Notes under the pieces: generated by a model | Databases searched by the model: none | What the model saw: the letters and a program-made list of their open reading frames with translations, nothing else | Told to the model about the DNA's origin: nothing | Source of the DNA: Myxococcota bacterium | Lineage (GTDB): Bacteria; Myxococcota_A; SURF-8 | Assembly: GCA_965140415.1 (NCBI GenBank) | Contig: OZ223209.1 | Coordinates: 4,512,001 to 4,576,000 of the forward strand | DNA length: 64,000 nt | Direction: 5' to 3' | Program-made: the position numbers and the translations under genes | In this document: positions 9,693 to 34,867 of the stretch, one piece after another | How positions within the stretch are numbered: the stretch's first letter is position 1 | How the letters are laid out: every line of letters begins with the position of its first letter

Positions 9693-9708
9693 GAAAACAC
9701 CATTTCGC

Positions 9709-16765: not shown

Positions 16766-18967
16766 TTAGCTGGAAGCCGTTTCAGCTTGGGTTTCCTTGT
16801 CTGTGTTGTAATAGCCGTAGCGATGGTAATAGTAGTAGTAGTGACTGCCGTACTCCTTACTGTCCAGGTCCAGATCGTTAATGATCGCTCCCAGCAGATT
16901 GGCTTTGACATCGGTCAGCGAGCGTTTGGCTTGAATGGCAACATCCCGCAAGGTCTTGCCACTCTTGACGATCATCACGACGCCATCAACCAGATTGGAC
17001 AGAATCAGCGAATCCGCCACGGCAATGACCGGGGGTGAATCGAGAATGACCATGTCGTACATGGCGGAGAGATTATCGATGATGGTCTTGAAGCGCTCCG
17101 AGCCGACCAGTTCCGCCGGATTCGGTGGAATGGGACCACAGGTCAGAATGGTCAGGTTTTCGATTTCCGTCTTTCGCACGGCTTCCGCCTCGTTCATGGT
17201 GCCCATGATGATGTTGGAAAGGCCGTATTCGTTTTTCATGTTGAAAGCCTTGTGCAAACGCGGACGACGCATATCTGTGTCCAGAATCAACACTTTGCGG
17301 CCCAGATTGGCCATGGTGATGCCGATATTGGACACAATGGTCGTCTTCCCTTCGCGCGGGGAGGCACTTGTCACCAGGATGCGGCGCAGAGGTTTTCCAG
17401 GGGAAACGAAATTGATGTTCGTTCGAATTGAACGGCAGCATTCCGCCAGGGAGGATTTTGGCCGTAAAAAGGCATAACGATCCACCACGTTGGGGATATT
17501 CTGCTCGAGCAGTTGCTGATCCACCTTCACCTGAGGCACGACGCCCAGCAGGGGCACCTTCAGGTAACGCCCGATATCCGCTGCGTTTTTAAGGGTTTTA
17601 TCCAGGATTTCCAACAGCACCGCTAAGCCGACACTGAAAATCAAGGCCAGCATGAAACCCAAGGCCAGATTCAACTTCACACGCGGACGAATGGGTTTGA
17701 TCGGCACCTTGGCTTCATCCAACATGCGGATATTGTTGACTTCCAGCATACTGGACAAATCGATTTCCTTCAATCGAACCAAGACCTGCTGGAACAATCC
17801 CTGGTTGCTTTCTTTTTCACGCAGCAGGCGATTATATTCCACCTGCTTCAACGTCAGCAGTTTGGCCTGATCCTTGACTTTGTCCAACTCGCTTTGGATG
17901 GCCAAAAAAGTCGTGCGAGACGCTTCGAATTCGGCGCGAACGCCATTGATGATCGCCCGCACTTCGGAGCGCAGGTTTTCTTTTGTGCGATCAAGCTGCG
18001 ATTTCACCTGGAGTACATCCGGATGGCGCTCTTTATAGACCTGCAGCAATTCGGAGTATTGGTTCTGCAAGCGAACGTACTCGACTTTCAGATCTTTGAT
18101 CAGCGGGCTTTGCAGCACCGTCATCGACGCGATACGCTCGACGTCCTCCTCCGGCATGATACGCTGCATGCTTTCGTATTGCGCCTTCAGTTTCACATAC
18201 TCGGTTTCAGCCCGTCGCGTTTCGGAATACAGTTCGGACAAGCGTGTTCCGGTGATATTGACACGCTCATCCATGTCAGTAGAGAGAATGTCGTTCTCTT
18301 TTTTGAATTCATACAGCGCGCGCTCGGATTCTTCCAATTTAGATTTCAGTTCGTCGACCTGTTCGGACAACCATGAAATAGCGCTACGCGCAGAACTGGT
18401 CTTGCGCTCCAGATTCTGTTCGATGTAAGCCTCGGCCACCGCGTTGGCAATGGTTGTAGCCTGCTGTGGGTCGGTGCCACGATAGCGGATCAGCGCTAAA
18501 CGGCTATCCGTTACCGGTTCGATAATAAGATTCAATAACAGCGTTTCCGCGGGATCGGCTTCTTCCAGCAATTCAGCCAGTTCCGCTTCATCCTCTATCT
18601 CATCCAAACCTAAAAACGCCAGATCCCGATCGAGATGCAACCGCTCCACAACCGCCAGTGCAACACGCCGGGAATGCAAAATCTGGTATTGGGTCTCGAA
18701 GTAGGATTTGTTATCCCAATACGACACATCACCGAGCTTGTAGACGTCGTTGACATCCGACAGCACCTGATCGGCCTGCAAATCGATTTCCACGGTCGCT
18801 ACGGCTTCATAGATCTTGGGCGATCGGATCGTAACGACGACGGAAATGAACAAAACCGAAACAAACACAAGTAAGATCAACCACTTGCGCTTTAACAAAC
18901 CCCGATAGTAATCGGTAAACGTCAGGGTTTCACTTTGCTGATGATTTTCTGTAGGTTGATAGTCCAC
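16766..18967 (-). CDS. wzc: Polysaccharide co-polymerase / BY-kinase (Wzc)
   Basis: Two TM helices around a periplasmic coiled coil, Walker A SASPREGKTT, DTDMRRP, ILDSPP and C-terminal Tyr cluster YYYYYHRYGYY. Confidence 0.95.
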   Translation of the reverse strand: MDYQPTENHQQSETLTFTDYYRGLLKRKWLILLVFVSVLFISVVVTIRSPKIYEAVATVEIDLQADQVLSDVNDVYKLGDVSYWDNKSYFETQYQILHSRRVALAVVERLHLDRDLAFLGLDEIEDEAELAELLEEADPAETLLLNLIIEPVTDSRLALIRYRGTDPQQATTIANAVAEAYIEQNLERKTSSARSAISWLSEQVDELKSKLEESERALYEFKKENDILSTDMDERVNITGTRLSELYSETRRAETEYVKLKAQYESMQRIMPEEDVERIASMTVLQSPLIKDLKVEYVRLQNQYSELLQVYKERHPDVLQVKSQLDRTKENLRSEVRAIINGVRAEFEASRTTFLAIQSELDKVKDQAKLLTLKQVEYNRLLREKESNQGLFQQVLVRLKEIDLSSMLEVNNIRMLDEAKVPIKPIRPRVKLNLALGFMLALIFSVGLAVLLEILDKTLKNAADIGRYLKVPLLGVVPQVKVDQQLLEQNIPNVVDRYAFLRPKSSLAECCRSIRTNINFVSPGKPLRRILVTSASPREGKTTIVSNIGITMANLGRKVLILDTDMRRPRLHKAFNMKNEYGLSNIIMGTMNEAEAVRKTEIENLTILTCGPIPPNPAELVGSERFKTIIDNLSAMYDMVILDSPPVIAVADSLILSNLVDGVVMIVKSGKTLRDVAIQAKRSLTDVKANLLGAIINDLDLDSKEYGSHYYYYYHRYGYYNTDKETQAETASS

Positions 18968-19022
18968 ACCGGTTTCCTAATCACGAGATATACGAAAAAA
19001 CTCCCACCGTCAGCAATCAGTG

Positions 19023-19661
19023 TCAGAAAAGCGCTTCGGGGATGAAAATGATGTCACCCGGCTGCAATGGCACGTTGGGTTGCTTGCCTTTCCAGATCAG
19101 ATCGACCTCGACATCGATTCGTTTCTCCGATCCGTCTACGATACGAGTGATACTCGCTTCGCTTTTCGCGGCAGTATTCGTATAGCCCCCCGCCATGGTG
19201 ATCGCTTGGATAATGGTCATGTTCTCTTCAAACCGAAACGTTCCCGGTTTTTGTACCTGACCGAATACAAATATCTTCTGACTATTGAATTCTTTAACAT
19301 AAACCGACACATACGCTTTTTTCAAATAATCCTTTTCCAAGCGCTGCTGGATCTCGGACTCGATCTGGCTGGGCGTTTTCCCAGAAATCTGAACGTCGCC
19401 GATCAATGGAAAAGCGATGGTGCCTTTATCGGAAACACGATAGATCGAACTCAGGTTCTCTTCGTTGAATACGCGCACCTCAAACACATCGTCCTGGCCC
19501 AAGGTCGCCGCCGTCCTGATCAGATCGCCGAGTTGGGAACTTTGATGGGCTGTTGCTTGCTGCTCGGGAGAAGTATTCCCCTTGCTATAGACACAGCCCC
19601 CAAGCAGGCTCACCAGGCAAAATAGCCATACCAGACGCAATAGTGTTTTATTAAGTTGCAT
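19023..19661 (-). CDS. wza: Short OPX polysaccharide export lipoprotein (Poly_export + SLBB)
   Basis: Lipobox LGGC, GTIAFPLIGDV (PES-like), VFGQVQKPG and LQPGDIIFIP. At 212 aa it lacks the C-terminal OM-spanning helix. Confidence 0.9.
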   Translation of the reverse strand: MQLNKTLLRLVWLFCLVSLLGGCVYSKGNTSPEQQATAHQSSQLGDLIRTAATLGQDDVFEVRVFNEENLSSIYRVSDKGTIAFPLIGDVQISGKTPSQIESEIQQRLEKDYLKKAYVSVYVKEFNSQKIFVFGQVQKPGTFRFEENMTIIQAITMAGGYTNTAAKSEASITRIVDGSEKRIDVEVDLIWKGKQPNVPLQPGDIIFIPEALF

Positions 19662-19775
19662 GGTTGTTGAATTCGGCTTTCGATTCGTATGTTACGGCAA
19701 AGCACTTCCCTCGCCGCCACCGAACCATCCCGCCGGAGCGTATTTCCACGGGCAGCGATGAAATAGGAACGTAGG

Positions 19776-21242
19776 TTAGTATGCCAAGGTTAGCTTTAAA
19801 AACGCCTCGTGCTTGAGGTAGTCGTAATAGGTTACCTGCTGTACCTGCTGGTTTGCGGCAGCGGAACTGTCGATAATGCGGTACACGAAATCGCTGTCAC
19901 GCCAGGTAAAGGTGTAACCGATTTCCATATAAATCCACGACAGGAAATCATATCGCATGCTGGGCGTAACGGACGCCTCGAATTCGATGTCGCGATTACC
20001 CAACGCCAAAAACTGATTGGCGGCTTCATCGGTATCTACACCATAAGGCGTTCCCTGATCGTCAATGCCGCTATCCGTGCGTCCGAACTCGAAGATGGAG
20101 AAATAGCCATAGAGGGAAAGCTTAAGGCTGTCATTGACAAACCACTGCTTGAATTCCATGTAAATCTTGTTGTCCACTTGGTAGGAGAACGTCGTGACCG
20201 GATTGAAGCTACGCGCGTAACCGCCTTTCAGTTGCGTACGCGGTGTAAACTGTCCAACCAGTTCCAGGCGTCCAAGGAAGTTGTTGTAATCTTCCTGCCG
20301 ACCGGAAGAGAAGGAGTTTCCATAACCAGCGGCAACGTTGATAAGGAATTTGTTGGTCACACGACCCATCACGCCAAGCAGTATGCGCAACGGCATGGCG
20401 CTGGGTTCGGAACTATTGGTATTCCCATTGTCATTGGTCACATTGAAATCGTAGTAATCACGAATGCCGAAACTGTTGGACATGAACAACGCCGTTTTGG
20501 GGAAGAATTCCCATTCCCAATTCAGCAGAAAGTTGTGTTCCATCCAATTTTGATTTGCGTAGATATTCACGCCTGCGGCGTCTTTCTTCGAATCGTAACG
20601 CTCCAGATCGTGGGTGTATCCCAAGGTAAAGCGTAGTTGCCCGCCACCGGGACGGATGTTCAATTTAGCTGAGAGTTGATTGTGCATACGGTCGTTGGTA
20701 TCGACAATACCGACTTTCTTCGGCTCGATGGAACGAGTGAAGGTATCGCTTACTTCAAAACCTGCAACCGCTTTGCGGAAAAGATTCAGCGCGACACGCA
20801 CATTACCGCTGGGAGCGGATAGATCTTTTGTCGTACTGTTATCGATACCGAAATAGCGTACGTAGCGAGCTTCACCATCTAACGTGAAAGCTACGATATC
20901 ACTGGGATAGTTCAATTTAAAAGCGCCGATGATGTGCAGAATATCATCGTAATTCACCAAACCGGAATAATTGGTGTCGTTTTTATCGCTAGCGTTGTTT
21001 ACGTTACTATCAAACACATTCTGAAGGCTCAAACCCGGATGCAACCGGAGTTTACCGATTTTAAAGCCACGATCGTTCTCGGCTTTCTTTTGTTTTTGCT
21101 CCAACGTCTGCATTTCTTCTTGTGCGCTGGCAGTTTGCCCCAAAAAGCCAACCACAAATACGGAAATCACCAACATGGATACGATAAGCCGTAGGTTTGT
21201 AGCGTTCATCCCCAATCCTTCCAAGGATTCCATTATATACAC
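19776..21242 (-). CDS. Outer-membrane beta-barrel, probable polysaccharide porin partner of short Wza (EpsX/Wzp-like)
   Basis: Signal peptide, GKLRLHPGL...FDSNV N-terminus, amphipathic beta-strands and C-terminal LKLTLAY BAM-type signal. Directly upstream of wza. Confidence 0.7.
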   Translation of the reverse strand: MYIMESLEGLGMNATNLRLIVSMLVISVFVVGFLGQTASAQEEMQTLEQKQKKAENDRGFKIGKLRLHPGLSLQNVFDSNVNNASDKNDTNYSGLVNYDDILHIIGAFKLNYPSDIVAFTLDGEARYVRYFGIDNSTTKDLSAPSGNVRVALNLFRKAVAGFEVSDTFTRSIEPKKVGIVDTNDRMHNQLSAKLNIRPGGGQLRFTLGYTHDLERYDSKKDAAGVNIYANQNWMEHNFLLNWEWEFFPKTALFMSNSFGIRDYYDFNVTNDNGNTNSSEPSAMPLRILLGVMGRVTNKFLINVAAGYGNSFSSGRQEDYNNFLGRLELVGQFTPRTQLKGGYARSFNPVTTFSYQVDNKIYMEFKQWFVNDSLKLSLYGYFSIFEFGRTDSGIDDQGTPYGVDTDEAANQFLALGNRDIEFEASVTPSMRYDFLSWIYMEIGYTFTWRDSDFVYRIIDSSAAANQQVQQVTYYDYLKHEAFLKLTLAY

Positions 21243-21358
21243 TATTCAATACGCGAAATCGACGCGAAATCGGTCTCGGCGCAAAGCACCGAGGCCGTCT
21301 TCTCTCTAACACTTCCCACCCGTTCTACCCGTTCGCAACCCGAACGTGATAGATGCTA

Positions 21359-21985
21359 CTAAAAAGGACTAGCCACATCCTTCGGTGGAGTTGGTGGCAA
21401 TTCCGAATCACTGCTTGAGTCATCGAAAACACTGCCAACCTGACCCGTCGTTTGCTGCGACGAGGTATCCGACCGATCGGAATAGCTTTGTTCGCTTGCA
21501 TCATTGGGGTCGATATTATCGACCAAGGTGGTATCGTCACCCAAGGTGATTTCATCTACGATGACTTCTCGTCCACCTTCTTCACCGAAACGACTGGCGG
21601 CACCGAGCTGCTCCTCGGTTTCTTTGATCAATTGCGCAACTTGCTGATCTGCGATATCCAGCAGGTTACATTGGTCCGCCACACATTCCGCCGTGGCACA
21701 CTTGGAGGTGTTTTTCAGCTTGTCATTCGCTTTTTCGACCAATGTTTTCAGTTTACGTAACTCTCGGATCCATTCTTCGTATTTTGGCTTCTGGATCGGT
21801 TCAGCAGCATTCATCTGTTTACCATATTCATCGATCCATTTATCCAAATCTTGAACGGTTTTATCCGCTTTATTCTGGCAAGTCGAGCGAGAAGCCGCCT
21901 GAGCGCTCGCCTGCGAAGCAAAACCGAGGTTGATTGCCAATGACAGCAATACCGCCATAACTAAAAGCAGACGTTTCGTACCCAT
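21359..21985 (-). CDS. Secreted hypothetical protein (helical Cys-containing core, acidic Ser-rich tail)
   Basis: RBS AAGGA before MGTKRLLL and a signal peptide ending ASA. Lies between gltG and the beta-barrel gene. Confidence 0.65.
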   Translation of the reverse strand: MGTKRLLLVMAVLLSLAINLGFASQASAQAASRSTCQNKADKTVQDLDKWIDEYGKQMNAAEPIQKPKYEEWIRELRKLKTLVEKANDKLKNTSKCATAECVADQCNLLDIADQQVAQLIKETEEQLGAASRFGEEGGREVIVDEITLGDDTTLVDNIDPNDASEQSYSDRSDTSSQQTTGQVGSVFDDSSSDSELPPTPPKDVASPF

Positions 21986-22262: not shown

Positions 22263-23639
22263 TCAGCGGCTTGACATGAAAATGAAGGGGTATTCAATAA
22301 CCGTTTCATCTTCCGGCCTTGGGAATCGCCAACGCCTAACGGTTTTCAGAATACATTTTTCAACATTGGAATTACTCAGAGAACTGGAAACAACCGAGGC
22401 ATTGGTAACCGCACCTGTTGAACCAATCGTCCATTCCACTGTCACTTTTCCGTTCAGTTTCGGATTCAAGCGCAATTCCGCTTCGTAACAATGCTTAATG
22501 GCCGGCTGATTTCTTTTGACGATCCGATTTACGGCTTTTTGATCCAGGCTACCATCTACGGTGGGAACGCCCAGAGAGGCCTTGGCCACAATCTTCTTTT
22601 CCGCACGTCCGGATAAACCTTCTTTTCCACCCGAACTGACCTCAGCACGACCGATTTCTTTCGATTCCGGTCCGCCACCACCACCACGTCGTCCACGCTC
22701 GGTTGCCTTTTTGGCGACGCCTACACCGGTGACGCCTTCCATCATGCTATCGATTTCACCAAAGCGTCCACCCTCTTGCAGGGTATCAGCCAAAGCGGTT
22801 CCGCTTCCGTCACTCGCCGGACCTTTGGACGTCAACAGGGCGATTAAACCGGCTCCTGCAACTTTCTTGGCGATTTCTGCACGACGTTTCGCGGCGGCCT
22901 CTGCGCGCTCACGATCGCTCATTTCTTTCTTAGGCTTATTCGAGCCTTCGTTTTCGTCTTTCTTTGCCTTTTTCTCGGGCTTCTTTTCCTCTTTCAGGCC
23001 TTCGCCTTCGCCTTCGAGTTCTTGAGTGTCCTCTTTCAGCTTTGGCAAATCCGTTGCGATGATCTTAGCGAATCGCTCAGCCACCATCTCCAACTTGGCA
23101 CGTTTGGGAATCGGCTGTGTTGAGGCGTACCCGAAGAATGTTGAATGCGCGACGAAAGAAGCGAACAGAATGGCAACATAAACCCAGTCGATCGATTTTA
23201 CCCAGCCTCCACGGATGGATGCCGGAAGCTTCGGTTTTGCTGGCAATGGAGGCGCTTGGACAAAATGGAAAATAACCGTGACTTCACCAAAAGTCACTTT
23301 CCCTTTCATATCGTCGGAGAGCGGTAGCAGATACGCGTTGCCTTTTTTCTTGGCTTTTCCGCTACTGACCATCTCTTTAAGGGAGCCGACAGATCCTGCC
23401 GAAGTTACCTTACCCGACATATCGGAGGTGAATGAAAGCTCGTAACGGCTTCCTTTGTCAATGAAAAGAGGAAACAGTTTGGGAACAGCTGCGTCGGAAA
23501 CCGGAATAATGAAGCTCGCTTTTGGAGACTCGCCAATCGTTACGGTTTGTCGCTTTCGGATAAACCGCTCTTCGATAATCCGGCCTCTTTGTATGATGCC
23601 AATCCGAATGATTTTACCGGATTGTTTAGTGCTCATCAA
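22263..23639 (-). CDS. gltG: GltG/PglI-like TonB/TolA-type energy transducer
   Basis: Cytoplasmic beta-rich N-domain, TM helix with SFVAHS (SxxxH TonB-like), charged/Gly-rich linker and C-terminal IKHCYEAEL..NPKLNGKV...VEKCI...WRFPRP...YPFIF (AgmX/PglI C-terminal domain). Confidence 0.8.
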   Translation of the reverse strand: MMSTKQSGKIIRIGIIQRGRIIEERFIRKRQTVTIGESPKASFIIPVSDAAVPKLFPLFIDKGSRYELSFTSDMSGKVTSAGSVGSLKEMVSSGKAKKKGNAYLLPLSDDMKGKVTFGEVTVIFHFVQAPPLPAKPKLPASIRGGWVKSIDWVYVAILFASFVAHSTFFGYASTQPIPKRAKLEMVAERFAKIIATDLPKLKEDTQELEGEGEGLKEEKKPEKKAKKDENEGSNKPKKEMSDRERAEAAAKRRAEIAKKVAGAGLIALLTSKGPASDGSGTALADTLQEGGRFGEIDSMMEGVTGVGVAKKATERGRRGGGGGPESKEIGRAEVSSGGKEGLSGRAEKKIVAKASLGVPTVDGSLDQKAVNRIVKRNQPAIKHCYEAELRLNPKLNGKVTVEWTIGSTGAVTNASVVSSSLSNSNVEKCILKTVRRWRFPRPEDETVIEYPFIFMSSR

Positions 23640-23856: not shown

Positions 23857-24453
23857 TTAGAGTCGGATTACGGCAAATTCGAATTCCCCGAACTCCGCCT
23901 GACCCGCAGTATACAACACTTCAGCCAATAAGCGATAGGGAACTTCTTCATCACCGATAATCAACATTCTACCCTGAAACTTGACGCTCGAGTTATACTG
24001 GCTAAGTTTCTTTTGTTTCTCAGCCGCCGTCTGCAATGCATCGAACAACGGCGTGATGAAATAGCCATCTTCTCCATCGCGCTTGGCAGACGCGGAAACT
24101 TTGCCCTCTTTCACCTGAACGATCGGCTTGTCATCCACCAGGATGTGCTTTTTCGTAATGGCCAGTGGCGTTAAATGAGAGTGCGTTTCCTGCGTTTCCA
24201 ACGATTGAACCAGCTGCAAATCGGCAGACGGATTGATGTTCAACGGGCTTGTCGCATAGTTCATGAGCATGAAGACGAGCAAGATGGTCATGATGTCCAT
24301 CAATGAGGTAATACTCATTTCCTGCTTGTCACCAGGCCTGCGACCCTTTGAACGCTTGCGCCGCTTAAGCCGCAGCTTACGTTTCTCTTCGAGTTCTTCC
24401 AACTCTTCAGGCGTCAGGTTCTTTTCTTGGGCTGTCGTGTTTATCTCACTCAT
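23857..24453 (-). CDS. aglS: ExbD/TolR-family motor subunit (AglS-like)
   Basis: ITSLMDIMTILLVFML TM with the conserved Asp, and IIGDEEVPYRLLAEVLYTAGQAEF. Confidence 0.75.
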   Translation of the reverse strand: MSEINTTAQEKNLTPEELEELEEKRKLRLKRRKRSKGRRPGDKQEMSITSLMDIMTILLVFMLMNYATSPLNINPSADLQLVQSLETQETHSHLTPLAITKKHILVDDKPIVQVKEGKVSASAKRDGEDGYFITPLFDALQTAAEKQKKLSQYNSSVKFQGRMLIIGDEEVPYRLLAEVLYTAGQAEFGEFEFAVIRL

Positions 24454-24520: not shown

Positions 24521-25219
24521 CTAAACGACGCCGGCTGTCAACACCACTTGTGGAAAGAGAAACTCTTTTTCATTCGCATCGTTGATGAAACTTCTGGAAG
24601 TATCCATCACGCGAATGATCGTCGTAAACAGAATATTCGGATCACTTGAAAGCATAACCTGCTTCTCATCCGGGAAAGCCTTTTTGATAACCTGAAGCTT
24701 CTCGTTGAGCAGCGGATAGTTATGGTCCAGTTCTTCTGTAATCTGCAACGGCCCGGAGCTGTTTTTGTAATTTTCCAGCCGGCTGTTGAGCTCTTCTTCT
24801 TCCATGAGATGGGTGCCCATGGTGTACTTCTTGCCGTTGTGCGTCCAAATCCGCATCAACTCGACAGAGCGCCCCTGAGAGTTACGGCCTTTATAAACCT
24901 TGACGTTCACTTTAGGAATCGTCGGGCCAGTCTGTGCGGTTTGCTCTTCACTGCCTGGCAATACGTTGTTGGCGCTGGCAATATAAATACCCAGCGAGCT
25001 AACGGCCAGAGTCAGGTTCAACGGAGGCTTTTCATCCGTTTTTTCCACGGCTTCGGCCTTGGGACCGATGCGCGGCGAAGAAACGGCGATCGTCGCCACC
25101 TTGATGTATTCCGTCGAGATCAGCAGCGCCGGAATCAGGATGGCCAACAGATTCATGAATGGAATCAGGTCCACCTCGGAACCGACGAGCGACTTCTTGT
25201 ATTTGTCTGTTCTAGACAT
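24521..25219 (-). CDS. ExbD/TolR-family motor subunit (AglQ position)
   Basis: VDLIPFMNLLAILIPALL TM and SDPNILFTTIIRVMD...LFPQV. Located between the TolQ-like and second ExbD genes. Confidence 0.75.
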   Translation of the reverse strand: MSRTDKYKKSLVGSEVDLIPFMNLLAILIPALLISTEYIKVATIAVSSPRIGPKAEAVEKTDEKPPLNLTLAVSSLGIYIASANNVLPGSEEQTAQTGPTIPKVNVKVYKGRNSQGRSVELMRIWTHNGKKYTMGTHLMEEEELNSRLENYKNSSGPLQITEELDHNYPLLNEKLQVIKKAFPDEKQVMLSSDPNILFTTIIRVMDTSRSFINDANEKEFLFPQVVLTAGVV

Positions 25220-25262: not shown

Positions 25263-25907
25263 CTATTTCTCCAAGCCAGTACCTTTGCCGCGAGAAACCA
25301 GCAGATTCTCCAGCTTAACCGAATACTGATCGATTTCCTGGATGATCTTGGTGGTCACGTTCGACAGGAACAGATGCACGGCCATGCAAGGAATCGCGAC
25401 GATCAGACCGAAAGCGGTGGTGTTCATGGCGATCGAAATGGCGGCGGCCAAAACGGTGGCTTTCTGTTCCGGAGCTGCGGTAGCCACAGCCTCGAAGGCC
25501 TGGATCATACCGAAGATGGTTCCGAGCAGACCAAGGTAAGTAGCGATCTGAGCCAGGGTAACCAGGCTGCCGGTACGCTTCTGGATGACGGGCAGCACTT
25601 CCAAGGAGGCTTCTTCGATCGCGTTGGCGATTTCGGTTTCACCCTTGTTGGCGCGAGTCAGACCAGCTTTGATGACTTTGGGCAACGCAGCATTCTGAGC
25701 GGCATTGCAAAGCTTGATCGCACGGTCGATGTTATTGGCCATGACCAGTTTCTGGACCTGAGCCATGAACGCATTCGCATTGATGTTGAAACGGAAAAAG
25801 AGGAACACAAAGCGCTCAATCATAACAGCCAGCGCGATGACCGAAACGGCGGCGATCACGTACATAAAGGGACCACCCTGCTCCATGAATTGTTGCACAG
25901 CACCCAT
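25263..25907 (-). CDS. aglR: MotA/TolQ/ExbB proton-channel protein (AglR-like)
   Basis: GGPFM, IER, ATYLGLLGTIFGMIQAF and AMNTTAFGLIVAIP motifs. Confidence 0.85.
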   Translation of the reverse strand: MGAVQQFMEQGGPFMYVIAAVSVIALAVMIERFVFLFFRFNINANAFMAQVQKLVMANNIDRAIKLCNAAQNAALPKVIKAGLTRANKGETEIANAIEEASLEVLPVIQKRTGSLVTLAQIATYLGLLGTIFGMIQAFEAVATAAPEQKATVLAAAISIAMNTTAFGLIVAIPCMAVHLFLSNVTTKIIQEIDQYSVKLENLLVSRGKGTGLEK

Positions 25908-26341: not shown

Positions 26342-26469
26342 CATGTTCACTCCCCGCAAATATGGGAACGGATGATAAATTAATGCCTTGATCTTTTCAA
26401 GTATTTTTTTTCATCCCTGATGCAATTCGATTCAAAAAACCACTATTCCCTGTAAATACACCGTAATTT

Positions 26470-28227
26470 CTATTCCACCGGTGGAGGAATTTCCTCTTCT
26501 TCTTCACTTTCCGGTGGGCTGCTTTTCTTTTTCTGGGCTTCTTCGTAGCGCCGCTGAGCCTCTTCCACAGCTTTACGCTCTTCATCGCTCAGACCATCAT
26601 CCGAAGCTTTTTCTTGCTCAACCTTCGGAGATTCCGGCTCGGTTGGCTGCGGCTGCTCTTGCGCCTTTTCATTTTCCTGCTCGGCAGCGGCCTGTTCAGC
26701 GGCAGCTTGCTCGGCGGCGGCCTGCTCGGCAGCAGCTTGTTCGGCGGCGGCTTTTTCAGCGGCAGCCTTTTCCGCAGCGGCTTCCGCTTCTCGCGCCTTA
26801 CGGCGGGCATTACGCTTGATACGTTTCTGTAAACGCACAATCGTTCGCTCGTTCTTGTTCAGGCTGGAATCGATCTCCTCGATGTACTTCGGAGCCGGGT
26901 CATCATCGGAAAGCGGACGCGCCAACTCTTCGTATTTACTCAGGTAACCACGAGCGATGCCCAAACGTTCATTCACGGCTTTCAAATGAACGATTTCTTC
27001 TTCCGAGCTTGCGTTTTCCTTCAATTGCGGCATGATCTGCAAAAAAACCAGTCCGCGATCGAAATACAACTCAATCATACCCGAATTGAGTTTTTCCGCC
27101 TGATCGTAGGCCGCTAGCGCTTCCTTCTCTTTTTCCAATCCCGCTAACGCCGCACCTTTATTCAGGTATGCTTCCGCAAAGCTGGGATTGTAGCGAATCG
27201 CCTTTTCAAAACTTTGCAGCGCCTTGTCGAATTCCTTGGTATCGAGATAATAAATCCCAAGATTATTATGAGCTTCGCTGAAGTCTTCTCGATACTTGAT
27301 CGCATTGATGTAGCTCTGCTGGGCGTCTGCCAGGCGTTTTTCTTTCCGGTCCACCGTCGCCAGTCCATACCAGGCTTCCGCTACGGATTCATCGATTTTG
27401 AGAATGCGCTTGAAAACCATACGCGCCAGTTCGGTTTTTCCCTCATTCAAGTAGGCTTCACCCAAGACCATCAGCGCGGTTGTGTCTTGCTCATTCTTCT
27501 TCAGCGCTTGCTTGGCAATTTCGATGGCACGATTGTTCTCACCATCCAAAACAAGGATTCTGGCCAAAGCAACGCTGAGATCCGTGCTCTCCGGGAAACG
27601 CTGCGTCATCTCTTCGAGAAAACGCACCCCATCCCTGCTACGACCCTGCTGCACGTACGACATCGCCAGGTTAGCAGCCGCAATGTAGTAGTTGCGCTTG
27701 ATATTCAAAGCCCGCTTGAAGCGTTCTTCCGCCGCACGATAATTGCGCTCGCGCATGGACAACAACCCCAGGTTGTTTTCCGCCTGGTAGCATTTGGCAT
27801 CTTTCGCCAACGCCGCCATGAATGTTTTGCGGGCTTCGGCAGGATTATCAGCCGCCATGGCGATACCCCGCTCGATATCCAGAGCGCAACTACCGGTAGC
27901 CTCGAACTCGTAGGGCTTTTCCTTCTCTTCTTCAATGGCCATTGCTTCCGGCAACGGCTCTTCAGGCGTCTTCGCCTGTTCCTCTTCAGGTTTATCAGCG
28001 GGTTGCTGCACGTCTTCTTCCGCAGCAGGGCCCTTGCCTTCTTCTTCTGCAACTGGCGGTTCCGCTTCCACTTCATCGGAGGCCAACCCGGCATCGGGCA
28101 ACAGATCCTCTTTTTGCTTGCTCTTATCGGCAGCACAGGAAGCCACCAACAGCGCCATGATTGCCAGCGCCGCAAGCGACCAGATCCCGGATCGCCAGAT
28201 TGTCCTCTTCCGTTTCATCGAAACCAC
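26470..28227 (-). CDS. gltE: TPR lipoprotein, GltE/AglT-like
   Basis: Lipobox VASC, multiple TPRs (AENNLG, EAHNNLG, AYLNKG) and an Ala/Glu-rich tail. Confidence 0.7.
   Translation of the reverse strand: MVSMKRKRTIWRSGIWSLAALAIMALLVASCAADKSKQKEDLLPDAGLASDEVEAEPPVAEEEGKGPAAEEDVQQPADKPEEEQAKTPEEPLPEAMAIEEEKEKPYEFEATGSCALDIERGIAMAADNPAEARKTFMAALAKDAKCYQAENNLGLLSMRERNYRAAEERFKRALNIKRNYYIAAANLAMSYVQQGRSRDGVRFLEEMTQRFPESTDLSVALARILVLDGENNRAIEIAKQALKKNEQDTTALMVLGEAYLNEGKTELARMVFKRILKIDESVAEAWYGLATVDRKEKRLADAQQSYINAIKYREDFSEAHNNLGIYYLDTKEFDKALQSFEKAIRYNPSFAEAYLNKGAALAGLEKEKEALAAYDQAEKLNSGMIELYFDRGLVFLQIMPQLKENASSEEEIVHLKAVNERLGIARGYLSKYEELARPLSDDDPAPKYIEEIDSSLNKNERTIVRLQKRIKRNARRKAREAEAAAEKAAAEKAAAEQAAAEQAAAEQAAAEQAAAEQENEKAQEQPQPTEPESPKVEQEKASDDGLSDEERKAVEEAQRRYEEAQKKKSSPPESEEEEEIPPPVE
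26677..26781 (-). repeat. Coding 15-bp tandem repeat, (AAAE[K/Q]) x7
   Basis: TolA-like helical repeat in the gltE-like C-terminus. Confidence 0.85.
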
Positions 28228-28306
28228 TTTCTTTTAAACTCTGCGGTACAAACCGCGATCACATGTTCCTTCGCATTTCGACCCATGCCCGAACGGCATT
28301 AATCGG

Positions 28307-31300
28307 TCATCCTTTTTTCTCGCCCGTCGGCGGCTGTTCAGCAGGAGCCTCTTCCACATCCTTGGGCTTAACAGGTTCATGTTTTTTACCGTTATCCATC
28401 GGCAACGGCGATGTCACCTGCATGCGCGGTCGTGTCATTTCACGTTTGCGCAGCTTACCCACACCGGAAATCATAGTCGTCAGATTCGGACGATTCATGG
28501 CGTCCATCAGTCGCTTCCACCAATCCGAAGTAAACAATTTCGCTTGCTTACCCACTTCGAAGGCTTCCATGTACTGATCCGCCGCCTGCTTGTAGAAAGG
28601 CCGCGCCTGATCCGTCAACGCCTGCTGGTACATCAGCACCGCATCTTCGCCCAGTTTCTTGATTTCACGCGGGATCGGCGCGTCAAACAGGGCATCGGCG
28701 AACAATTCCACCGTTTCGGCTTTACGATAACGGGTAGCCAGCAGATATTCGGGGCTACGATAATCCATGACCGTGTTGTACTTCTTGATCAATTCATACA
28801 TGCCCTCTTCCTTCTTTTTGAAGGATTCGGCCATTTTCTTCTGATTGCGTCCACCGATCCGAATCGCCAGATACTTCTCGCGTTCCAGTTCGATCAGACG
28901 GAACTGAGCTGCTGCCGCCATCTGGTTGGAAAGATAATCCGTCTGGATGGTTTCATGAGTCTTGAAGAAGTCCAGAGCTTTTTCGAAATACTTGACGCCG
29001 CCTTTGCGGTTTTTGCGCTTGAATTCGGCTTCACCGATCTTGAAATAAGCCTGCATGACGTAGCGGTGGTTTTGCGGCTGGTTGCCATAGCGCTTGATGA
29101 ACTCGTTATAAACGCGATCCATGTTACGCCAGTCTTCCAGTTTCCCATACAAGTCACCCGCCGTAAACAGTACCGTGGGGGCATCCTTCTCCACCGCCTC
29201 GCACTGGTCGGCGTATTTCCGGTAAATGCTGGCCGCCTGGCGATACTCGCGGTTGAATTCCTTCAACTGCGCGTGGTTGATGATCGCCGCGCATTTACGC
29301 TTGGGATCGATATTGGGATACTTGGTGTACAACCGTTCGTACGCTTTGCTGGCGTAATCGAGATTGAATGATTCGTAGGCGCTATCCGCCACGAAGTACA
29401 ACGCATCGGGCGCATCGGGCGCATCGGGGAACTCGTCCACCATGCGCTGGAACAATTTCATTGCGGTAGCCGGACGATTCGCCATCGAGTAGTTAACGGC
29501 GGCGTTATACAACAGCTTCGGCGCGTTCTCGCTCTTGGTGTCCTGCTCGGCAGCCTTCAGGAACTGCTTGGCTGCTTTTTCGTATTCCTTGCGCTGCTGT
29601 AGTTCAACCGCGTATTGGGCGATGGCGTTGCCCTCGATCACCTTCAACTCGGCGCGCATCTTGTCGCGCTCTTCGGTCGACCCCAACTCCAACGAAGCCA
29701 GCTTCTCGGACCATTCGGTAACCTTCACCCAGTCTTCTGCCAGGTAGTAGGTATCGATAATCCGGCGGGCTGCACGCGGAGCGAACTTGCTCTTGGGGAA
29801 TTTATCGACGATTTCGATGTAACGGTTACGCGCTTCTTCCAAATGGTCGTACTCGAAATAGATACCCGCGATATTCCAGGCGATGGTCTCCAGATCGGTC
29901 GCCTTTTTACCCTTGGCATTTTTCACGTAGAACTCGCCGGCAGCAATGTACTTCTGCTGCAACTCGGGAATCTCACGTTTTTCGATCTTGCCTTTAAGCC
30001 GCTCACGCTGCATCTTTTCGGCTTCTTCGTCGGTGACTTCGATGTCGCCGCCTTTGGTGCCGATCATGTTGTCGTAACAGATCACGACCGAATAAGCCGC
30101 CTCGTTGAAGTATTTGTCGTCCAGTTTGCTGTCGCGCACCTTAAGGTATTCAACCACAGCCTCTTTGTAACTTCCGCCATAGAACAAAGCTTCAGCCAGG
30201 TTGAAGTTCAGCTCGTAAGCCTGTTTGTCATGCGGGAATTTTTCCAAAAACTTCCGGTAAGCTTTGGCGGCGCGTGCATAGTAAATGGTTGCTTCCGCCA
30301 CCTTGTTTTCGCTGCGGAATTTCTGCGCCTGCAAATTCTGGAACAACGCCCATTGCTTCAAGGAGTTCAGCGCCAGTTCCGAAGCGATCTTAAGCGCTTC
30401 CGGGTCGTCGGCGTTCTGAATCTGCCACTGGCTCCCCTCGCCGTAATCGGAAACGAGCTTTTCACGCTCGGTATTCTGTCTCTCTTCGTCGCGCAATCCA
30501 TAGAAATAGATCTGGATGATCTTGTTCTGTAGTTCGGGATTCTCGCGATTCCAGGGATCTTTCTTGAGCACCCGTTTATAAGCGGCTACCGCTTCTCCCC
30601 ATTTGGTCTGCTGGGTGAAGTAATCACCCAACTGCCGGAACACATCCGCTTCCCAGGGACGATTTCCCAGTCCGTCGAAGAAGAGTTCGGCGTTGCCTTC
30701 ACCGGCATTGGGCCAGTAATCCGTGCCTTGCGCATAGCAGTAGGCGATGTACTTGACGGCTTCATCCCGGAAGTAGGAATGTCGCCCGTCTTTCTTGAGC
30801 ATTTCCTCGGAATAGTCGTTGACCTTGGCGAAGGTCCGGATCGAATCGTCGAAACGGCTGAGAATAAAATAGGTGGATGCCAACTTGTACAGGATCTGAT
30901 CGTAGAAGATCGATTCCGTGAAACGCGACGCTTCCCTCAACGCTTCCATAGCGGGCATGTAATTCATTTCGTTGAAGTAGGCATCGCCGATTCTCAAATA
31001 AGCTTCCGCCACGTACTCGCTCTCCGGACGACTGGCAATCAGATTTTCCAGAGCCCTACGCACGTCGGCGTAAGCCCGTTGTTCCTGGTAGGCATAGGCC
31101 AGCATATAATAGACAGCGTCGATGTAGCGGTAATCGGGGAATTTCTGCGCCAGCGCTTCGTATATGCGAATCGAATGACTGAAATCGGGATGCGGCGGAA
31201 TCGGTTCGTCATCCCGCAGACCTTCCTCAAACATCGTCCACTGGCGCTCATACTCCTTTAACAGGTCTTCCTGTACCAGAGCGAATTCCTTCTCCGCCTT

Positions 31301-31759
31301 TTCGTAATACAGATCGGAAAGTCGGAACATGGAATCCGGGGTGTATTTAGGTTCGTTGGGATAGAGCTTTACAAAGCGCTCCAAGGTTTCGATGGCGTCT
31401 AGGATCAACTTCAGCTCCCGGTCGTTCATCTGCTTCAAACGACCCTTGTAGCGGTCGTCGATTTCCTTGTCTTTACGCTCGAATTGAGATTCGATTACGT
31501 CGCCGATATCCTCGCCGAATTCCGTTACGCGGCGTGTGAAGCGGCGCACCGCCTCTTCCACATCCTCCTCGGCGATCTGTACATCTTCCGCCGTTGCGCT
31601 TAGTAGTTCCTGCTTGGCCGGTTCTTCATCCGCTCCGGCAGGCGCCTGCTGCGCGATTGCAGGAATGCCGAGCAGCAACAGAACACCCGTAAGCATTCCG
31701 ATCCATACCAAACGGCGCAAGGCGTTGTTTTGTTCTCCTGTCAGTCGCACCCTACTCAC
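28307..31759 (-). CDS. gltD: Large periplasmic TPR protein, GltD/AgmU-like
   Basis: Signal peptide and 1150 aa of TPRs, with C-terminal FADALFDAPIP...YQQAL..QARPF typical of AgmU-like proteins. Confidence 0.75.
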   Translation of the reverse strand: MSRVRLTGEQNNALRRLVWIGMLTGVLLLLGIPAIAQQAPAGADEEPAKQELLSATAEDVQIAEEDVEEAVRRFTRRVTEFGEDIGDVIESQFERKDKEIDDRYKGRLKQMNDRELKLILDAIETLERFVKLYPNEPKYTPDSMFRLSDLYYEKAEKEFALVQEDLLKEYERQWTMFEEGLRDDEPIPPHPDFSHSIRIYEALAQKFPDYRYIDAVYYMLAYAYQEQRAYADVRRALENLIASRPESEYVAEAYLRIGDAYFNEMNYMPAMEALREASRFTESIFYDQILYKLASTYFILSRFDDSIRTFAKVNDYSEEMLKKDGRHSYFRDEAVKYIAYCYAQGTDYWPNAGEGNAELFFDGLGNRPWEADVFRQLGDYFTQQTKWGEAVAAYKRVLKKDPWNRENPELQNKIIQIYFYGLRDEERQNTEREKLVSDYGEGSQWQIQNADDPEALKIASELALNSLKQWALFQNLQAQKFRSENKVAEATIYYARAAKAYRKFLEKFPHDKQAYELNFNLAEALFYGGSYKEAVVEYLKVRDSKLDDKYFNEAAYSVVICYDNMIGTKGGDIEVTDEEAEKMQRERLKGKIEKREIPELQQKYIAAGEFYVKNAKGKKATDLETIAWNIAGIYFEYDHLEEARNRYIEIVDKFPKSKFAPRAARRIIDTYYLAEDWVKVTEWSEKLASLELGSTEERDKMRAELKVIEGNAIAQYAVELQQRKEYEKAAKQFLKAAEQDTKSENAPKLLYNAAVNYSMANRPATAMKLFQRMVDEFPDAPDAPDALYFVADSAYESFNLDYASKAYERLYTKYPNIDPKRKCAAIINHAQLKEFNREYRQAASIYRKYADQCEAVEKDAPTVLFTAGDLYGKLEDWRNMDRVYNEFIKRYGNQPQNHRYVMQAYFKIGEAEFKRKNRKGGVKYFEKALDFFKTHETIQTDYLSNQMAAAAQFRLIELEREKYLAIRIGGRNQKKMAESFKKKEEGMYELIKKYNTVMDYRSPEYLLATRYRKAETVELFADALFDAPIPREIKKLGEDAVLMYQQALTDQARPFYKQAADQYMEAFEVGKQAKLFTSDWWKRLMDAMNRPNLTTMISGVGKLRKREMTRPRMQVTSPLPMDNGKKHEPVKPKDVEEAPAEQPPTGEKKG

Positions 31760-34070
31760 CCCTCAGCTCCTGGAAGGTGATTTTCAACTGGTCTTTTTCA
31801 TCGCTACGCTGTTCCAACAACGTATTGACTTTTTCTTTGACCTTTTGGCGTCGCTCCCAGGCGACATCCACCATACCCACATTGGCTTTGAGCACGATGT
31901 CGTGAAAGCGCTCGCGCACGTCTTTGAGATTCTGATAGGCGATCTTGGCCGCCAATTCGGAAGATTCGTTGCGGTGCTGCACCAACGTCGCTTCAAAACG
32001 TTCAAGCTCACGCTCTTCGTTTTCCACTTCCTCGATAAAGGACTTCACACGGTCCTCCACCAGCGTTTCCAGATCCGCGAAAAAGGTCTGCACCGAGCCA
32101 TCCAGCCGATCCGCTCGCCCCTTGGCTTTTTCAACTCGCTCAAACAGCGCAATACCTTCCGGCGTCAATGCGGTGCGCATTCGCTCCAGCATATCTCTTT
32201 CCTGCGCCATTGTTTCTTCCAGTTGCTTGCGGATACGCTCGTCCTGATCCCCGGCTTCATCGCCGATCTTGGCCATTTCCAGACCCTCGCGCACGGTCGA
32301 TTGCATATCTTGCAGATAGTCCAGATTCGCCTGGATTTCCGCCCGCTCACGTTCGACCTTCTCTTTGACCTCGCGCAGGTAATTCTGACTCATCTTCGGA
32401 TCGCCACGCAATTGTTCGTGACGCTCCAATATCAATGTCATTAACTGGTTAAGACCTTCCATCTGCAATTTAAGAGCATAAAGCGACTTATCGAAACTCT
32501 CCAACTGCTGCACCTGCTTGTCACGCCGCTCCATCCGCTGCTGGGCGGTTTTGGGGATCTTGGCGTAGATTTCTTCCAGGTCGCGCCGCTTCTTTTGAAT
32601 TTCCAAAAGCTTTTCGCGATCGGACTGGGTGAACTTCTCGCTGAACAACTGGTTGGTCAGGCGCGTCAACTCGCCACGAACTTCCGTCAAACCATGCTCG
32701 ACTTCCACACCGGCCTCACGGCCTTCCCGCAGGTTGGGAAACAGATTGGCTTTGCTTTCCTGGTTAAGATGCACTTTCAACGCATCGATGATCTGATGCG
32801 ATTCGGCGGCATCCTGCTGGCTCGCTTCCAGATTTCTTACCATACCCAGCGCATCGGAGACGCCTTCTTCCTGGCTGAGCCACTCCATTACGATGGGAGG
32901 CAGCGTCGTTTCACGCCCCAGCACATGTTGCTGAATCTCTTCGGCGCGCTTTCCTTCCGATTCAACCAACATGCGATCCATCGTATCCACGACTGACGCA
33001 TACTTGTTGATCACGGTTTGGAAACTGTAGTTCGCATCGGAGAAGCGCCCTTCCCACAACAGGATGTTTCCTTTTAACACCTGAGAGTCCGGCGCATAGA
33101 TCGAGCCAGGCAGCGCCAGCAGAAGAATATCCAGTGTGTTGGCGGCTTCTGCGAACTTGCCTTCTTTAATGTAGATCCAGCAGACTTCATAGTAAGCCTG
33201 ATCGAAGAAGTCACTTTTAATCGGAATGAGGCGATATAACGAAAGCGCTTCGGATGAATTTCCTTGCTCGAAAAGAATTCTGGCCACGGCCAAGGTTGCC
33301 AGTTCGCGAATCGCGATGCTGCGCTTATCGTCTCCTTCCAGAGACATCAAATCACGGAAGGTCTCCCGCGCTTCATCCAACTTGTTCTGCTGAACGAGAA
33401 TAACGCCGGCAAAGTATTCCGCTTCGGCGTACTTGTTGCTGCTCATCGGAATCTGGCGGAAAATATGAAACGCACGATCCAGATAATTTTTCTTTTGCAA
33501 TGATTTGGCGAAGGCATATTGAATCAGATCCCAGCCCTCTCCGCCTTTAGCCGTATTCAAACGATCATAATAGTCTTCGGCATCTTCGAAGCGCCCCAAT
33601 TCCACGGAGATTTCGATCAGCCGTACAATCGCATCTCTGAAATGCGGGAACATATCGCCCCGAGCCACGACTTTTTCCAAATAAGTGCGGGCGGAAATGT
33701 AATTCCGGTCCCGGGAAAACGAATCGCCCAGATACCAGATCAGGTCGTAGTATTCGGCCCGGCGTTCAATGTTGGGATAATTGATCAGATCGGAAAAAAT
33801 AATCGAGGCATGCACGAAATCGCCGTCGTTGTACAGAAAGACCGCACGCTCGAAACGGCGCGTGAAATACTCCACTCCAGACATTTCCAGCGGCTTGACA
33901 TAACGTCCGCGCATCTCGGCTACATTCGATTCCATGTAGTCGAGCCGCTTTTCCAGATCGCCAAGATCTCCGGCCATGTCGGCATGAGCCATCGGCATCC
34001 ACACGCACAGCGCGACGAAGATCCCTACGACTCCGAATACTGTATCTTGCACCCTGTCGGCAATTCGCAT
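31752..34070 (-). CDS. Exported TPR + coiled-coil protein of the Glt-like operon
   Basis: Signal peptide (AHA), TPRs, long coiled coil and C-terminal KANVGMVDVAW. Overlaps the gltD-like start. Confidence 0.7.
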   Translation of the reverse strand: MRIADRVQDTVFGVVGIFVALCVWMPMAHADMAGDLGDLEKRLDYMESNVAEMRGRYVKPLEMSGVEYFTRRFERAVFLYNDGDFVHASIIFSDLINYPNIERRAEYYDLIWYLGDSFSRDRNYISARTYLEKVVARGDMFPHFRDAIVRLIEISVELGRFEDAEDYYDRLNTAKGGEGWDLIQYAFAKSLQKKNYLDRAFHIFRQIPMSSNKYAEAEYFAGVILVQQNKLDEARETFRDLMSLEGDDKRSIAIRELATLAVARILFEQGNSSEALSLYRLIPIKSDFFDQAYYEVCWIYIKEGKFAEAANTLDILLLALPGSIYAPDSQVLKGNILLWEGRFSDANYSFQTVINKYASVVDTMDRMLVESEGKRAEEIQQHVLGRETTLPPIVMEWLSQEEGVSDALGMVRNLEASQQDAAESHQIIDALKVHLNQESKANLFPNLREGREAGVEVEHGLTEVRGELTRLTNQLFSEKFTQSDREKLLEIQKKRRDLEEIYAKIPKTAQQRMERRDKQVQQLESFDKSLYALKLQMEGLNQLMTLILERHEQLRGDPKMSQNYLREVKEKVERERAEIQANLDYLQDMQSTVREGLEMAKIGDEAGDQDERIRKQLEETMAQERDMLERMRTALTPEGIALFERVEKAKGRADRLDGSVQTFFADLETLVEDRVKSFIEEVENEERELERFEATLVQHRNESSELAAKIAYQNLKDVRERFHDIVLKANVGMVDVAWERRQKVKEKVNTLLEQRSDEKDQLKITFQELRGE

Positions 34071-34141
34071 TGTTACGTGCCCCGTCCTAACAGTTCACCT
34101 GCGCCTGGTTCTGACCGGCCATACGGATTGGCAGACCGTTC

Positions 34142-34867
34142 CTACCCTTCCACATCGCTGCCCTTGTCATCCTGCTTATCTTCGAGATTTTCTTCCTGAA
34201 GGTCGTAGAAATGAGTCTGGTATTTAACAGCCGGGCGCTCTTCAAATCGAGCAGTCGAGCCACCCTTATCGTAGCCGACGACATCGATCTTTGTGATTTT
34301 GCCTTCTTCGGCCTTGAACGTGTAAGAAGACTTCAGCTTGACCTGAATTCCTTCCACATAAACAAACACGGCGGAATGACCGCGATACACCATGTACACA
34401 GACAGCAGGTGATTTCCCGGTTGAATCGTACCGTTGTAAATTTCGATTTCCTTGTCGTTGTTCAAATCACCATCGATATCGATCTTACCGAAAATCGGAG
34501 CACCATCGAGGTAATAGGCAACGCTTTCAAGCTTGTAAACGGAGCCGATGTCATTTTTGTGGGTAATTACGGATTTGCTTCCGGCAATCACGCCATGAAG
34601 AATGGTTTCCTGCAACAACAACAAGCGGGTTTTGGAACGGAAAATTTTTTCCTTGAGCTGATTGACTTTCTCTTCCAACTGCTTCAGCTTCAACTCGTAT
34701 GCATCGTCACCGGAAGCCATGACTGGCGAGCTTTCCGGCTGTACGGCTGCCCCTTGCTCATTACCGGAAGCCTCCGGCGCTGCTTGCTGCGCCCACAGTG
34801 TCTGACATGTAAAAAGCAATGTCAGAGTAACCGCACAAATTGCAATACTCAACCGAGCTGCCCGCAT
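34142..34867 (-). CDS. Exported coiled-coil + beta-sandwich protein, first gene of the Glt-like operon
   Basis: RBS GGAGG before MRAARL, a signal peptide, coiled coil LKQLEEKVNQLKEKIFRSKTRL, then a beta-rich domain. Confidence 0.7.
   Translation of the reverse strand: MRAARLSIAICAVTLTLLFTCQTLWAQQAAPEASGNEQGAAVQPESSPVMASGDDAYELKLKQLEEKVNQLKEKIFRSKTRLLLLQETILHGVIAGSKSVITHKNDIGSVYKLESVAYYLDGAPIFGKIDIDGDLNNDKEIEIYNGTIQPGNHLLSVYMVYRGHSAVFVYVEGIQVKLKSSYTFKAEEGKITKIDVVGYDKGGSTARFEERPAVKYQTHFYDLQEENLEDKQDDKGSDVEG

Follow-up and report, generated by a model that had tools for sequence, protein, structure and literature searches.

A G4-type Agl-Glt cluster joined to a biosurfactant-type polysaccharide translocon in a Myxococcota bacterium, with a candidate plug for the outer-membrane barrel

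Why should a Glt scaffold and a proton motor, best known from gliding, stand directly in front of a polysaccharide exporter? The question is raised by a locus in a 64,000-nucleotide stretch of a Myxococcota bacterium genome (contig OZ223209.1, positions 4,512,001 to 4,576,000; hereafter the window), in which 13 open reading frames (ORFs), all on the minus strand, run from window position 34867 down to 16766. They encode, in this order, an exported protein (P), homologues of GltC, GltD, GltE and GltF, the motor subunits AglR, AglQ and AglS, a GltG homologue, a secreted protein (X), an outer-membrane β-barrel, a short Wza and a Wzc. An earlier note on this DNA had listed 13 co-oriented genes in the same order, which the ORFs and domain scans confirm, and had read them as a self-contained machine, driven by the proton-motive force, for extruding or spreading a surface glycan. 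We conclude that the locus is a member of the G4-type Agl-Glt core family joined to a translocon of the biosurfactant polysaccharide (BPS) type, and not a gliding or Nfs machine. Our favoured reading, with a probability of roughly 0.45, is that the Glt block is a Ton-like device that moves or gates a plug in the glycan pore and is accessory to export.

The Glt block comprises gltC (31752–34070; 772 aa, TPR and coiled coil), gltD (28307–31759; an 1150-aa scaffold matching TPR families), gltE (26470–28227; a TPR lipoprotein whose repetitive C-terminal tail contains a 15-bp repeat at 26676–26783), gltF (26084–26359; 91 aa) and gltG (22263–23639; a 458-aa TonB/TolA-type transducer). GltG matches TonB_C above cut-off and bears an S-x3-H motif at residue 161. 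All scores against the curated NCBIfam Glt models lie under their cut-offs: 190 against 650 bits for GltG (NF033760), 130 against 225 for GltE (NF033758) and 47 against 450 for GltC (NF033756, E = 1.2e-12). NF033760 matches from profile position 219 only, and the protein has no N-terminal FHA domain. GltF is recognised by its ORF and conserved position and has no NCBIfam match at 1e-5; its profile retrieves the genome's other GltF. GltC and GltD carry YbgF-like TPR matches. The earlier note had seen no gltA, B, C, H or K here; gltC must be struck from that list because the 772-aa gene matches NF033756 and occupies the gltC position, and the absence of gltA, gltB and gltH from the locus stands.

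A gltC-D-E-F-G cluster with a short FHA-less GltG and no gltA/B/H is the layout of the orphan G4 cluster of Myxococcus xanthus (MXAN_1923–1919), which is listed, like the M2 motor (MXAN_3003–3005), as of unknown function in PMC3169522. The gene order agrees and the proteins are of comparable length, 772/1150/585/91/458 aa here against 809/1111/490/91/447 aa in M. xanthus (809, 91 and 447 aa for MXAN_1923, MXAN_1920 and MXAN_1919 in Table S3 of PMC3169522). In both species gltG is followed by a hypothetical gene, a barrel and a wza (MXAN_1917, 1916 and 1915 in M. xanthus). The window locus differs from G4 in having the motor inside the cluster and wzc after wza. The orphan glt cluster near BPS genes that the earlier note had mentioned is therefore real: G4 adjoins wzpB and wzaB, which are MXAN_1916 and MXAN_1915. 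In a GltD tree (FastTree, 44 rows), the GltA/H- and FHA-bearing clusters and a G5-like set are apart with a support of 96. The window GltD falls in a 99-support set with a Myxococcaceae locus (L052), the support for the whole G4-type group being weak (68), so that the phylogeny proposed earlier keeps the window genes away from gliding-type Glt. Named neighbours in the trees agree with a place of the organism in the Myxococcota. By order, lengths, the WzaB match described below and this tree, the locus is the probable equivalent, in this member of the phylum, of the M. xanthus orphan cluster G4. A search started from a single GltG found 2 of 18 related loci to be G4-type. The Myxococcaceae locus L052 has no motor and carries a gene for a cNMP-binding protein between gltG and X (L052:11536–11982); a gene of this kind occupies the same place in some other lineages (L018:13964–14413, with a 1601-aa protein in addition) and is a possible regulatory input. 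The first gene of G4-type loci encodes P (34142–34867, with AGGAGG preceding the ATG at 34867 and the longest ORF starting at 34966), an exported coiled-coil and β-rich protein for which no Pfam or meaningful NCBIfam match was found among 22 homologues and which probably holds the position of MXAN_1924.

The earlier note had built on a proton motor embedded in the Glt core. Such an arrangement has already been published: PMC3169522 describes an Agl-Glt core complex for Geobacter, Gammaproteobacteria and Fibrobacter, with gltC, D, E and G and aglR, Q and S grouped in a single region. The same seven homologues are found together in the window, and the order gltC-D-E-(small gene)-aglR-Q-S-gltG is that of Gura_3077–3070. 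Core loci share two further features with the window, an Asn at the AglQ site discussed below and a P homologue, which precedes gltC in a core locus from Nitrospirota (probability 95.9 by hhalign). They differ from it in that the fetched examples (L057, L058 and L064) are without X, barrel, wza and wzc and in that their GltD and AglR fall in separate clades. The proposal that the window arrangement is close to the ancestral Agl-Glt function finds no support in these non-Myxococcota loci, few as they are. The M. xanthus Agl-Glt and Agl-Nfs machines (PMC3858216, PMC11761067) resemble the window locus in their homologous motor, their GltC/D/E/F/G scaffold and their tie to a secreted polysaccharide. 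The window locus lacks GltA/B/H/K/I/J, the barrels GltA/B/H (NfsA/B/H) among them, its GltG has no FHA domain, and its GltD belongs to a separate clade.

The downstream genes closely follow the BPS translocon WzcB-WzaB-WzpB. The 212-aa product of 19023–19661 is a Class-3 short outer-membrane polysaccharide export (OPX) lipoprotein with Poly_export and SLBB domains, an invariant Cys23 and no C-terminal membrane helix. Its best match in the PDB is M. xanthus WzaB (9N9A; E = 1.8e-48, 168 bits, aligned to the end of 9N9A), and it scores 93 bits against the EpsY model (cut-off 320). Directly upstream, separated by 114 bp, lies the barrel gene (19776–21242), at the position of MXAN_1916 and of WzpB type. 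An AlphaFold2 (AF2) model of the protein has 18 long strands and only short N-terminal helices (pLDDT 83). As a single protein it has no direct Pfam or NCBIfam match and no sequence relative in the PDB, a Foldseek search of the PDB returned only generic barrels, and PF10082 is matched by 15 of 24 homologues. The wzc gene (16766–18967) encodes a WzcB-like PCP-2A co-polymerase with a fused tyrosine kinase (Wzz, GNVR, AAA_31 and TIGR01007 above cut-off), complete with Walker A, DTDMRRP and a tyrosine cluster. In M. xanthus, WzaB, WzpB and WzcB bind each other directly, wzpB and wzaB mutants have a severe swarm defect (PMC7310880, PMC9603273, PMC9601211, PMC12819527), and BPS is described in the BPS translocon literature as released, not surface-bound. 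One difference is that wzx and wzy here lie elsewhere in the genome, where three flippase and five Wzy_C matches were found, none of them assigned. As the locus itself has no wzx, wzy or glycosyltransferases, it is not self-contained for polymer synthesis as had been claimed. The suggestion that the polysaccharide barrel is the outer-membrane partner of the Glt block fares better, the barrel being the only outer-membrane candidate in the locus.

Is the junction of the two blocks peculiar to this genome? The synteny survey covered 141 genomes of the phylum, the window's own genome included, with profiles of the G4-type GltG (E ≤ 1e-85; 94 genomes), the barrel (E ≤ 1e-25; 108 genomes) and the WzaB-type OPX (E ≤ 1e-50) built from relatives. 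GltG and barrel occur together in 92 genomes, and in 86 of these the barrel lies at most 10 kb downstream of gltG on the same strand, with a median gap of 854 bp. The linkage spans 28 of 31 families and holds in 60 of 64 genomes outside the profile seeds; since linked loci served as profile seeds and related genomes do not count as independent, no p-value is given. Three of the six unlinked genomes end in contig edges (G036, G101, G134) and three look truly split (G019, G096, G114). Among the other gltG loci with at least 3 kb of downstream sequence (35 of 38), none has X, barrel or wza. The glt block and the barrel-wza block are thus linked across the phylum, as the earlier note had supposed. 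The parts around the junction are more mobile. The motor is embedded in 58 of 100 G4-type loci, absent between gltF and gltG in 41 and undetermined in one; a full wzc was found within the fetched stretch, which reaches about 7 kb past gltG, in 10 of the 100. Several G4 loci are rearranged: a clade-B motor and gltG are inserted in reverse in L169, L168 has an inverted motor and no barrel, tolQ is duplicated in L158, L198 is missing gltG and keeps X-barrel-wza, and the barrel of L121 is in three pieces.

Losses point in both directions. Of the 141 genomes, 77 have G4, barrel and WzaB-type OPX, 19 have G4 and barrel with no WzaB-type match, 12 have barrel and WzaB without G4, 2 have G4 only and 31 have none (four genomes were moved to G4-positive, their glt genes lying below threshold at their loci). 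The barrel is never alone in these genomes but always accompanied by G4, by a WzaB-type OPX or by both. The WzaB-type gene lies away from the barrel in 12 genomes, and in loci interrupted downstream of the barrel, the glt genes retain both X and the barrel beside them. X and barrel therefore form the hinge common to two separately losable modules, and the reciprocal losses support the coupling of G4 to the barrel. The 12 genomes without G4 all belong to one family (f12); in the ten f12 loci fetched, barrel, wza and wzc follow one another with X in nine and no G4 genes upstream, which argues that export does not need G4.

The 19 genomes without a WzaB-type match open another possibility, namely that barrel, X plug, GltG and motor form a split TonB-dependent-like system for the energised uptake of glycan or envelope fragments, with WzaB export through the same pore only in some lineages. 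Ton systems are importers, no wza was seen behind the barrel in 14 of the 19, and peptidoglycan-recycling genes flank the locus. Against this, a diverged wza stands immediately after the barrel in five of the 19, and about three others have a contig that ends too soon or a locus outside the fetched set; the locus shows no conserved gene for substrate binding or for a hydrolase; and in M. xanthus a wzpB deletion is export-defective and WzpB binds WzaB directly. We regard uptake as quite unlikely. The flanking genes in question are an LD-carboxypeptidase (S66) and an 896-aa ORF combining a beta-lactamase-family domain with a Mur ligase (Mpl-like), which diverge from the locus at 35262–38805 (+), and NamZ at 9709–10878; recycling and beta-lactamase genes (MXAN_1910/1911) also lie near wzaB in M. 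xanthus (2026 preprint).

What could the Glt block act upon? X (21359–21985) holds the position of MXAN_1917, and in 103 of 108 loci it immediately precedes the barrel gene. It has no Pfam or NCBIfam family and no informative name in any library tried; Foldseek returned nothing at E ≤ 0.001, and an Atlas search with an X homologue found only unnamed Myxococcota clusters, with a recognition value below the usual level. The predicted model shows a secreted three-helix bundle followed by a disordered tail. The tail is preceded by an alternating strand motif, G-(D/E)-T-x-V-x-V-x-V-D, which we take to resemble a TonB box, and ends in PPxxSP(F/Y); it is net-negative in 97 of 98 homologues. When X and barrel were modelled as a complex, the score was 0.63 (runs of 0.63, 0.68 and 0.26), the best of three controls reaching 0.00. 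The mark applied was passed by 116 of 157 solved pairs and by 2 of 215 mismatched ones; with our own alignments these counts are only approximate. The runs share at least 48% of contacts, with a partner pLDDT of at least 58. Confident contacts join X residues 159–206 to alternating residues on all 18 strands, inside the lumen; the contact residues of this barrel include 16 K/R and 8 D/E. The tail of X is thus predicted to sit in the barrel lumen as a plug in trans. MXAN_1917 appears only as 'hypothetical protein' in the supplement text of the BPS translocon papers, and the searched passages of PMC7310880, PMC9603273, PMC9601211 and PMC12819527 contain no mention of a plug protein for WzpB or of the G4 genes.

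Several observations weigh against the plug and against a gate built on it. One of the three X-barrel runs (0.26) falls under the mark. The controls were folded natural proteins, none of them an acidic disordered peptide, so that modelling may place any acidic tail in a cationic pore. Of 98 barrels only 57 have a positive net charge at the contact columns, no matching of charge between tail and lumen was detected across homologues (rho 0.06), and the window X has a tail exceeding the family median (47 residues). X and the tail motif persist without G4 in family f12; the motif is therefore not Glt-specific, and a Glt-specific docking site was rejected as its role. In the published Glt model a strand of GltF occupies the TonB-like domain of GltG (PMC11761067, PMC9946355, PMC9389320), and the published WzpB-WzaB-WzcB model needs neither plug nor motor. 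A polar MXAN_1922 mutant and an MXAN_3004 deletion are reported without appreciable motility defect (PMC3169522). Lastly, the relatedness of the genomes makes them non-independent, and co-regulation by itself can preserve gene order.

A rival account makes the two blocks co-regulated neighbours with no physical coupling: G4 would have a general envelope job, such as Tol-like upkeep of the outer membrane or hosting the motor for the genome's other Glt cluster, and X, barrel and wza would ride in the same operon. The 12 of 12 f12 genomes that keep the exporter without G4, the silent polar G4 mutant, the YbgF-like repeats, the core loci without exporter genes outside the phylum and the single Agl-type motor of the genome are all in keeping with it. 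It has to explain, however, why the order is kept in 28 of 31 families though motor, wza and wzc each detach freely, the motor being absent from 41 of 100 loci and 12 genomes having their WzaB-type gene apart from the barrel. It also leaves G4 with no other outer-membrane partner in its locus, whereas gliding-type clusters carry GltA and GltH. On balance we hold the neighbour account to be unlikely, though less so than the other rivals.

The motor that would drive such a gate consists of AglR (25263–25907; TolQ-type, PF01618) and two ExbD-type subunits (PF02472), of AglQ type (24521–25219) and AglS type (23857–24453). By their place in the motif, T130 and T164 of AglR presumably correspond to the channel threonines. 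The trio is the only AglRQS-type motor of the genome, scoring 376/272/289 bits against 111/32/20 for the next best, and an AglR-type search gave a single match at E ≤ 1e-25. A second Glt cluster (C1:4701817–4712849) contains gltA-, gltC, D, E, F, FHA-bearing gltG and gltH-like genes, with no gltB and no motor seen beside it. The motor can therefore not be called dedicated to the window locus, as had been claimed. A lone GltG paralogue (C1:3108432–3109877), a GltJ-like zinc-ribbon protein (C1:708479–710491) and a second wza-wzc pair, with a 319-aa OPX and no barrel inside a glycosyltransferase cluster (C1:2676042–2697217), lie elsewhere in the genome.

AglQ and AglS of M. xanthus each have a mid-membrane aspartate (PMC11761067, PMC9946355, PMC9389320), and the AglQ D28N substitution abolishes motility and sporulation (PMC3858216). 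The window motor does not have both aspartates: where AglQ has the essential Asp28 its first ExbD subunit has Asn23 (codon 25151–25153), and the second has the conserved Asp53. Among 56 embedded motors the conserved acidic site of the first subunit is occupied by Asn in 48, Ser in 5, Gly in 1 and Asp in 1, with one gap; it is Asp in 11 of 13 rows from stand-alone clade-B motors and in 6 of 8 detached motors (two gaps each), and Asn in 3 of 5 non-Myxococcota core rows (two gaps). All 86 aligned second subunits have Asp, and no further acidic residue was found in the helix among 55 Asn-type subunits. In clade-B proteins (e.g. L045) the site is at or near residue 28, and the match to AglQ D28 was judged from these proteins, not from M. 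xanthus AglQ. That the motor genes are conserved suggests that an Asn/Asp motor with one aspartate is functional. No sequence relative of the AglQ-type subunit was found in the PDB, and literature searches returned no paper on an Asn-type Agl motor.

AglR trees place the embedded motors apart from clade B (13 rows, 100/99). The eight detached motors all come from genomes with a motor-less G4; they make up a single clade (100/99), which joins the embedded motors with moderate support (72/92). The first tree was a quick version with long-branch warnings and was rebuilt on 56 of 89 rows, with 7 long rows dropped and the embedded rows halved. Three f12 genomes without G4 have only a clade-B motor. 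Metagenome-assembled genomes (MAGs) of Myxococcaceae carry two motors, 49–51% and 43–44% identical to the window motor, and these relationships suggest, at the level of sequence, that M2 is the motor of G4. A DprA gene lies 3–4 kb upstream of the closer motor in three of five such MAGs, though no paper was found that ties it to MXAN_3003; a protein search with the detached AglQ-type subunits returned no identifiable M. xanthus entry. MXAN_3003 is reported to bind neither GltG nor NfsG (PMC3858216). Two AglRQS-type motors of different clades lie head to head in L113, L114 and L115, and the same is listed for Sorangium sce2991–2996 (PMC3169522).

The nature of the motor bears on the version of the earlier note, a machine that extrudes glycan or moves it along the cell surface, in the manner of Agl-Nfs and the spore coat. 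Agl-Nfs does move the Exo polymer (PMC3858216), and the conserved linkage and the motor embedded in more than half of the loci would fit. Surface transport by Glt and Nfs, however, uses GltA/B/H barrels and FHA-bearing GltG, absent here; the embedded motor has the residue whose introduction into AglQ stops Agl-Glt movement and sporulation; and a released polymer such as BPS is not surface-bound. The exporter persists without G4 in the 12 f12 genomes, and the polar MXAN_1922 mutant lacks an appreciable motility defect as against the severe swarm defect of wzpB and wzaB mutants. Extrusion by this machine is accordingly improbable.

The likeness to TonB-ExbB-ExbD and a plugged transporter, on which the Ton-like gate is modelled, is one of working principle. 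Both have a proton motor of 5:2 type, a TonB_C transducer and a barrel with a lumenal plug (a predicted one here) that follows a β-strand motif. TonB-dependent transporters combine a 22-strand barrel, an N-terminal plug and a TonB box in one chain; the window barrel has 18 strands and is of exporter type, and its plug would be encoded as a chain of its own. Between the parts lies a large TPR scaffold, and the ExbD subunits form a hetero-pair with one acidic site. A structural model of Glt and the analogy to Ton have been published (PMC11761067, PMC9946355, PMC9389320).

At the sequence level the 13 genes look like one run. The longest ORFs are spaced by −8 to 217 bp, and a terminator-like hairpin 3′ of wzc (16703–16728, minus strand; 10 pairs, 8 of them G-C, with a T-rich tail, a consensus match only) is the strongest such site of the region and closes the run. 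Promoter-like matches in the region are at chance level (15, against 15.8 in shuffles). Past the terminator, 13879–16356 (−) encodes an 825-aa acidic coiled-coil protein with weak SMC-like matches, and a relative (L011) also has an SMC-like gene after wzc. Farther off are a run of Ser/Thr kinase, sigma70-r4 protein and zinc-ribbon TPR protein (4287–9767, −), an asparagine-synthase-like and GCS2 ligase pair (43528–46413, +), a 1294-aa protein with only a lamin-tail domain match (46598–50482, −), and, at 61549–63439 (+), a small outer-membrane β-barrel (PF13505) preceded by a 375-aa protein that matches no family.

On the favoured reading, the locus would encode a G4-type Agl-Glt machine together with its outer-membrane target. 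Glycan would leave as established in M. xanthus and, by homology, here, with Wzc handing the polymer to a WzaB octamer docked on the 18-strand barrel. X, a separate periplasmic protein, is predicted to plug the barrel with its acidic tail. Proton flow through the one acidic site of an AglR-type pentamer and its Asn/Asp ExbD pair would yield a pulling stroke, not processive movement. GltG, braced by GltD/E/F/C and P, may pass this stroke to X or the barrel as TonB does to a plugged transporter. The machine would gate, clear or reseal the pore without itself pushing the polymer out, and its motor may serve the second Glt cluster as well. A bolder and in our view doubtful proposal is that G4 in general is a Ton-like gate with a separate plug (X/MXAN_1917) and an asymmetric single-aspartate motor, that Asn/Asp is the ancestral state of the Agl core, and that the processive gliding and sporulation motor arose within a two-aspartate clade.

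All parts of the locus were already known; new here are the position and predicted plug role of X, the Asn at the AglQ site of embedded motors and the single motor of the genome. An opinion article of 2015 reportedly argues for a capsule origin of Agl-Glt and may already note the linkage of glt genes to an exporter. Literature searches returned no paper linking G4 to the BPS exporter or to a plug, and two 2026 preprints do not discuss G4 in the passages seen.

Since 2011 neither G4 nor the ancestral Agl-Glt core has been given a function, and the shutting and opening of Class-3 OPX porins also awaits an explanation. Positional counterparts of all parts exist in the genetically tractable M. xanthus (MXAN_1924–1915 and MXAN_3003–3005). 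If the Ton-like reading is true, MXAN_1917 would be found inside WzpB, the G4 GltG would pair with the M2 motor, and Asn/Asp motors would work though the same change kills AglQ. The orphan G4 would then gain a function, and Class-3 OPX export would gain a plug and an energy input.

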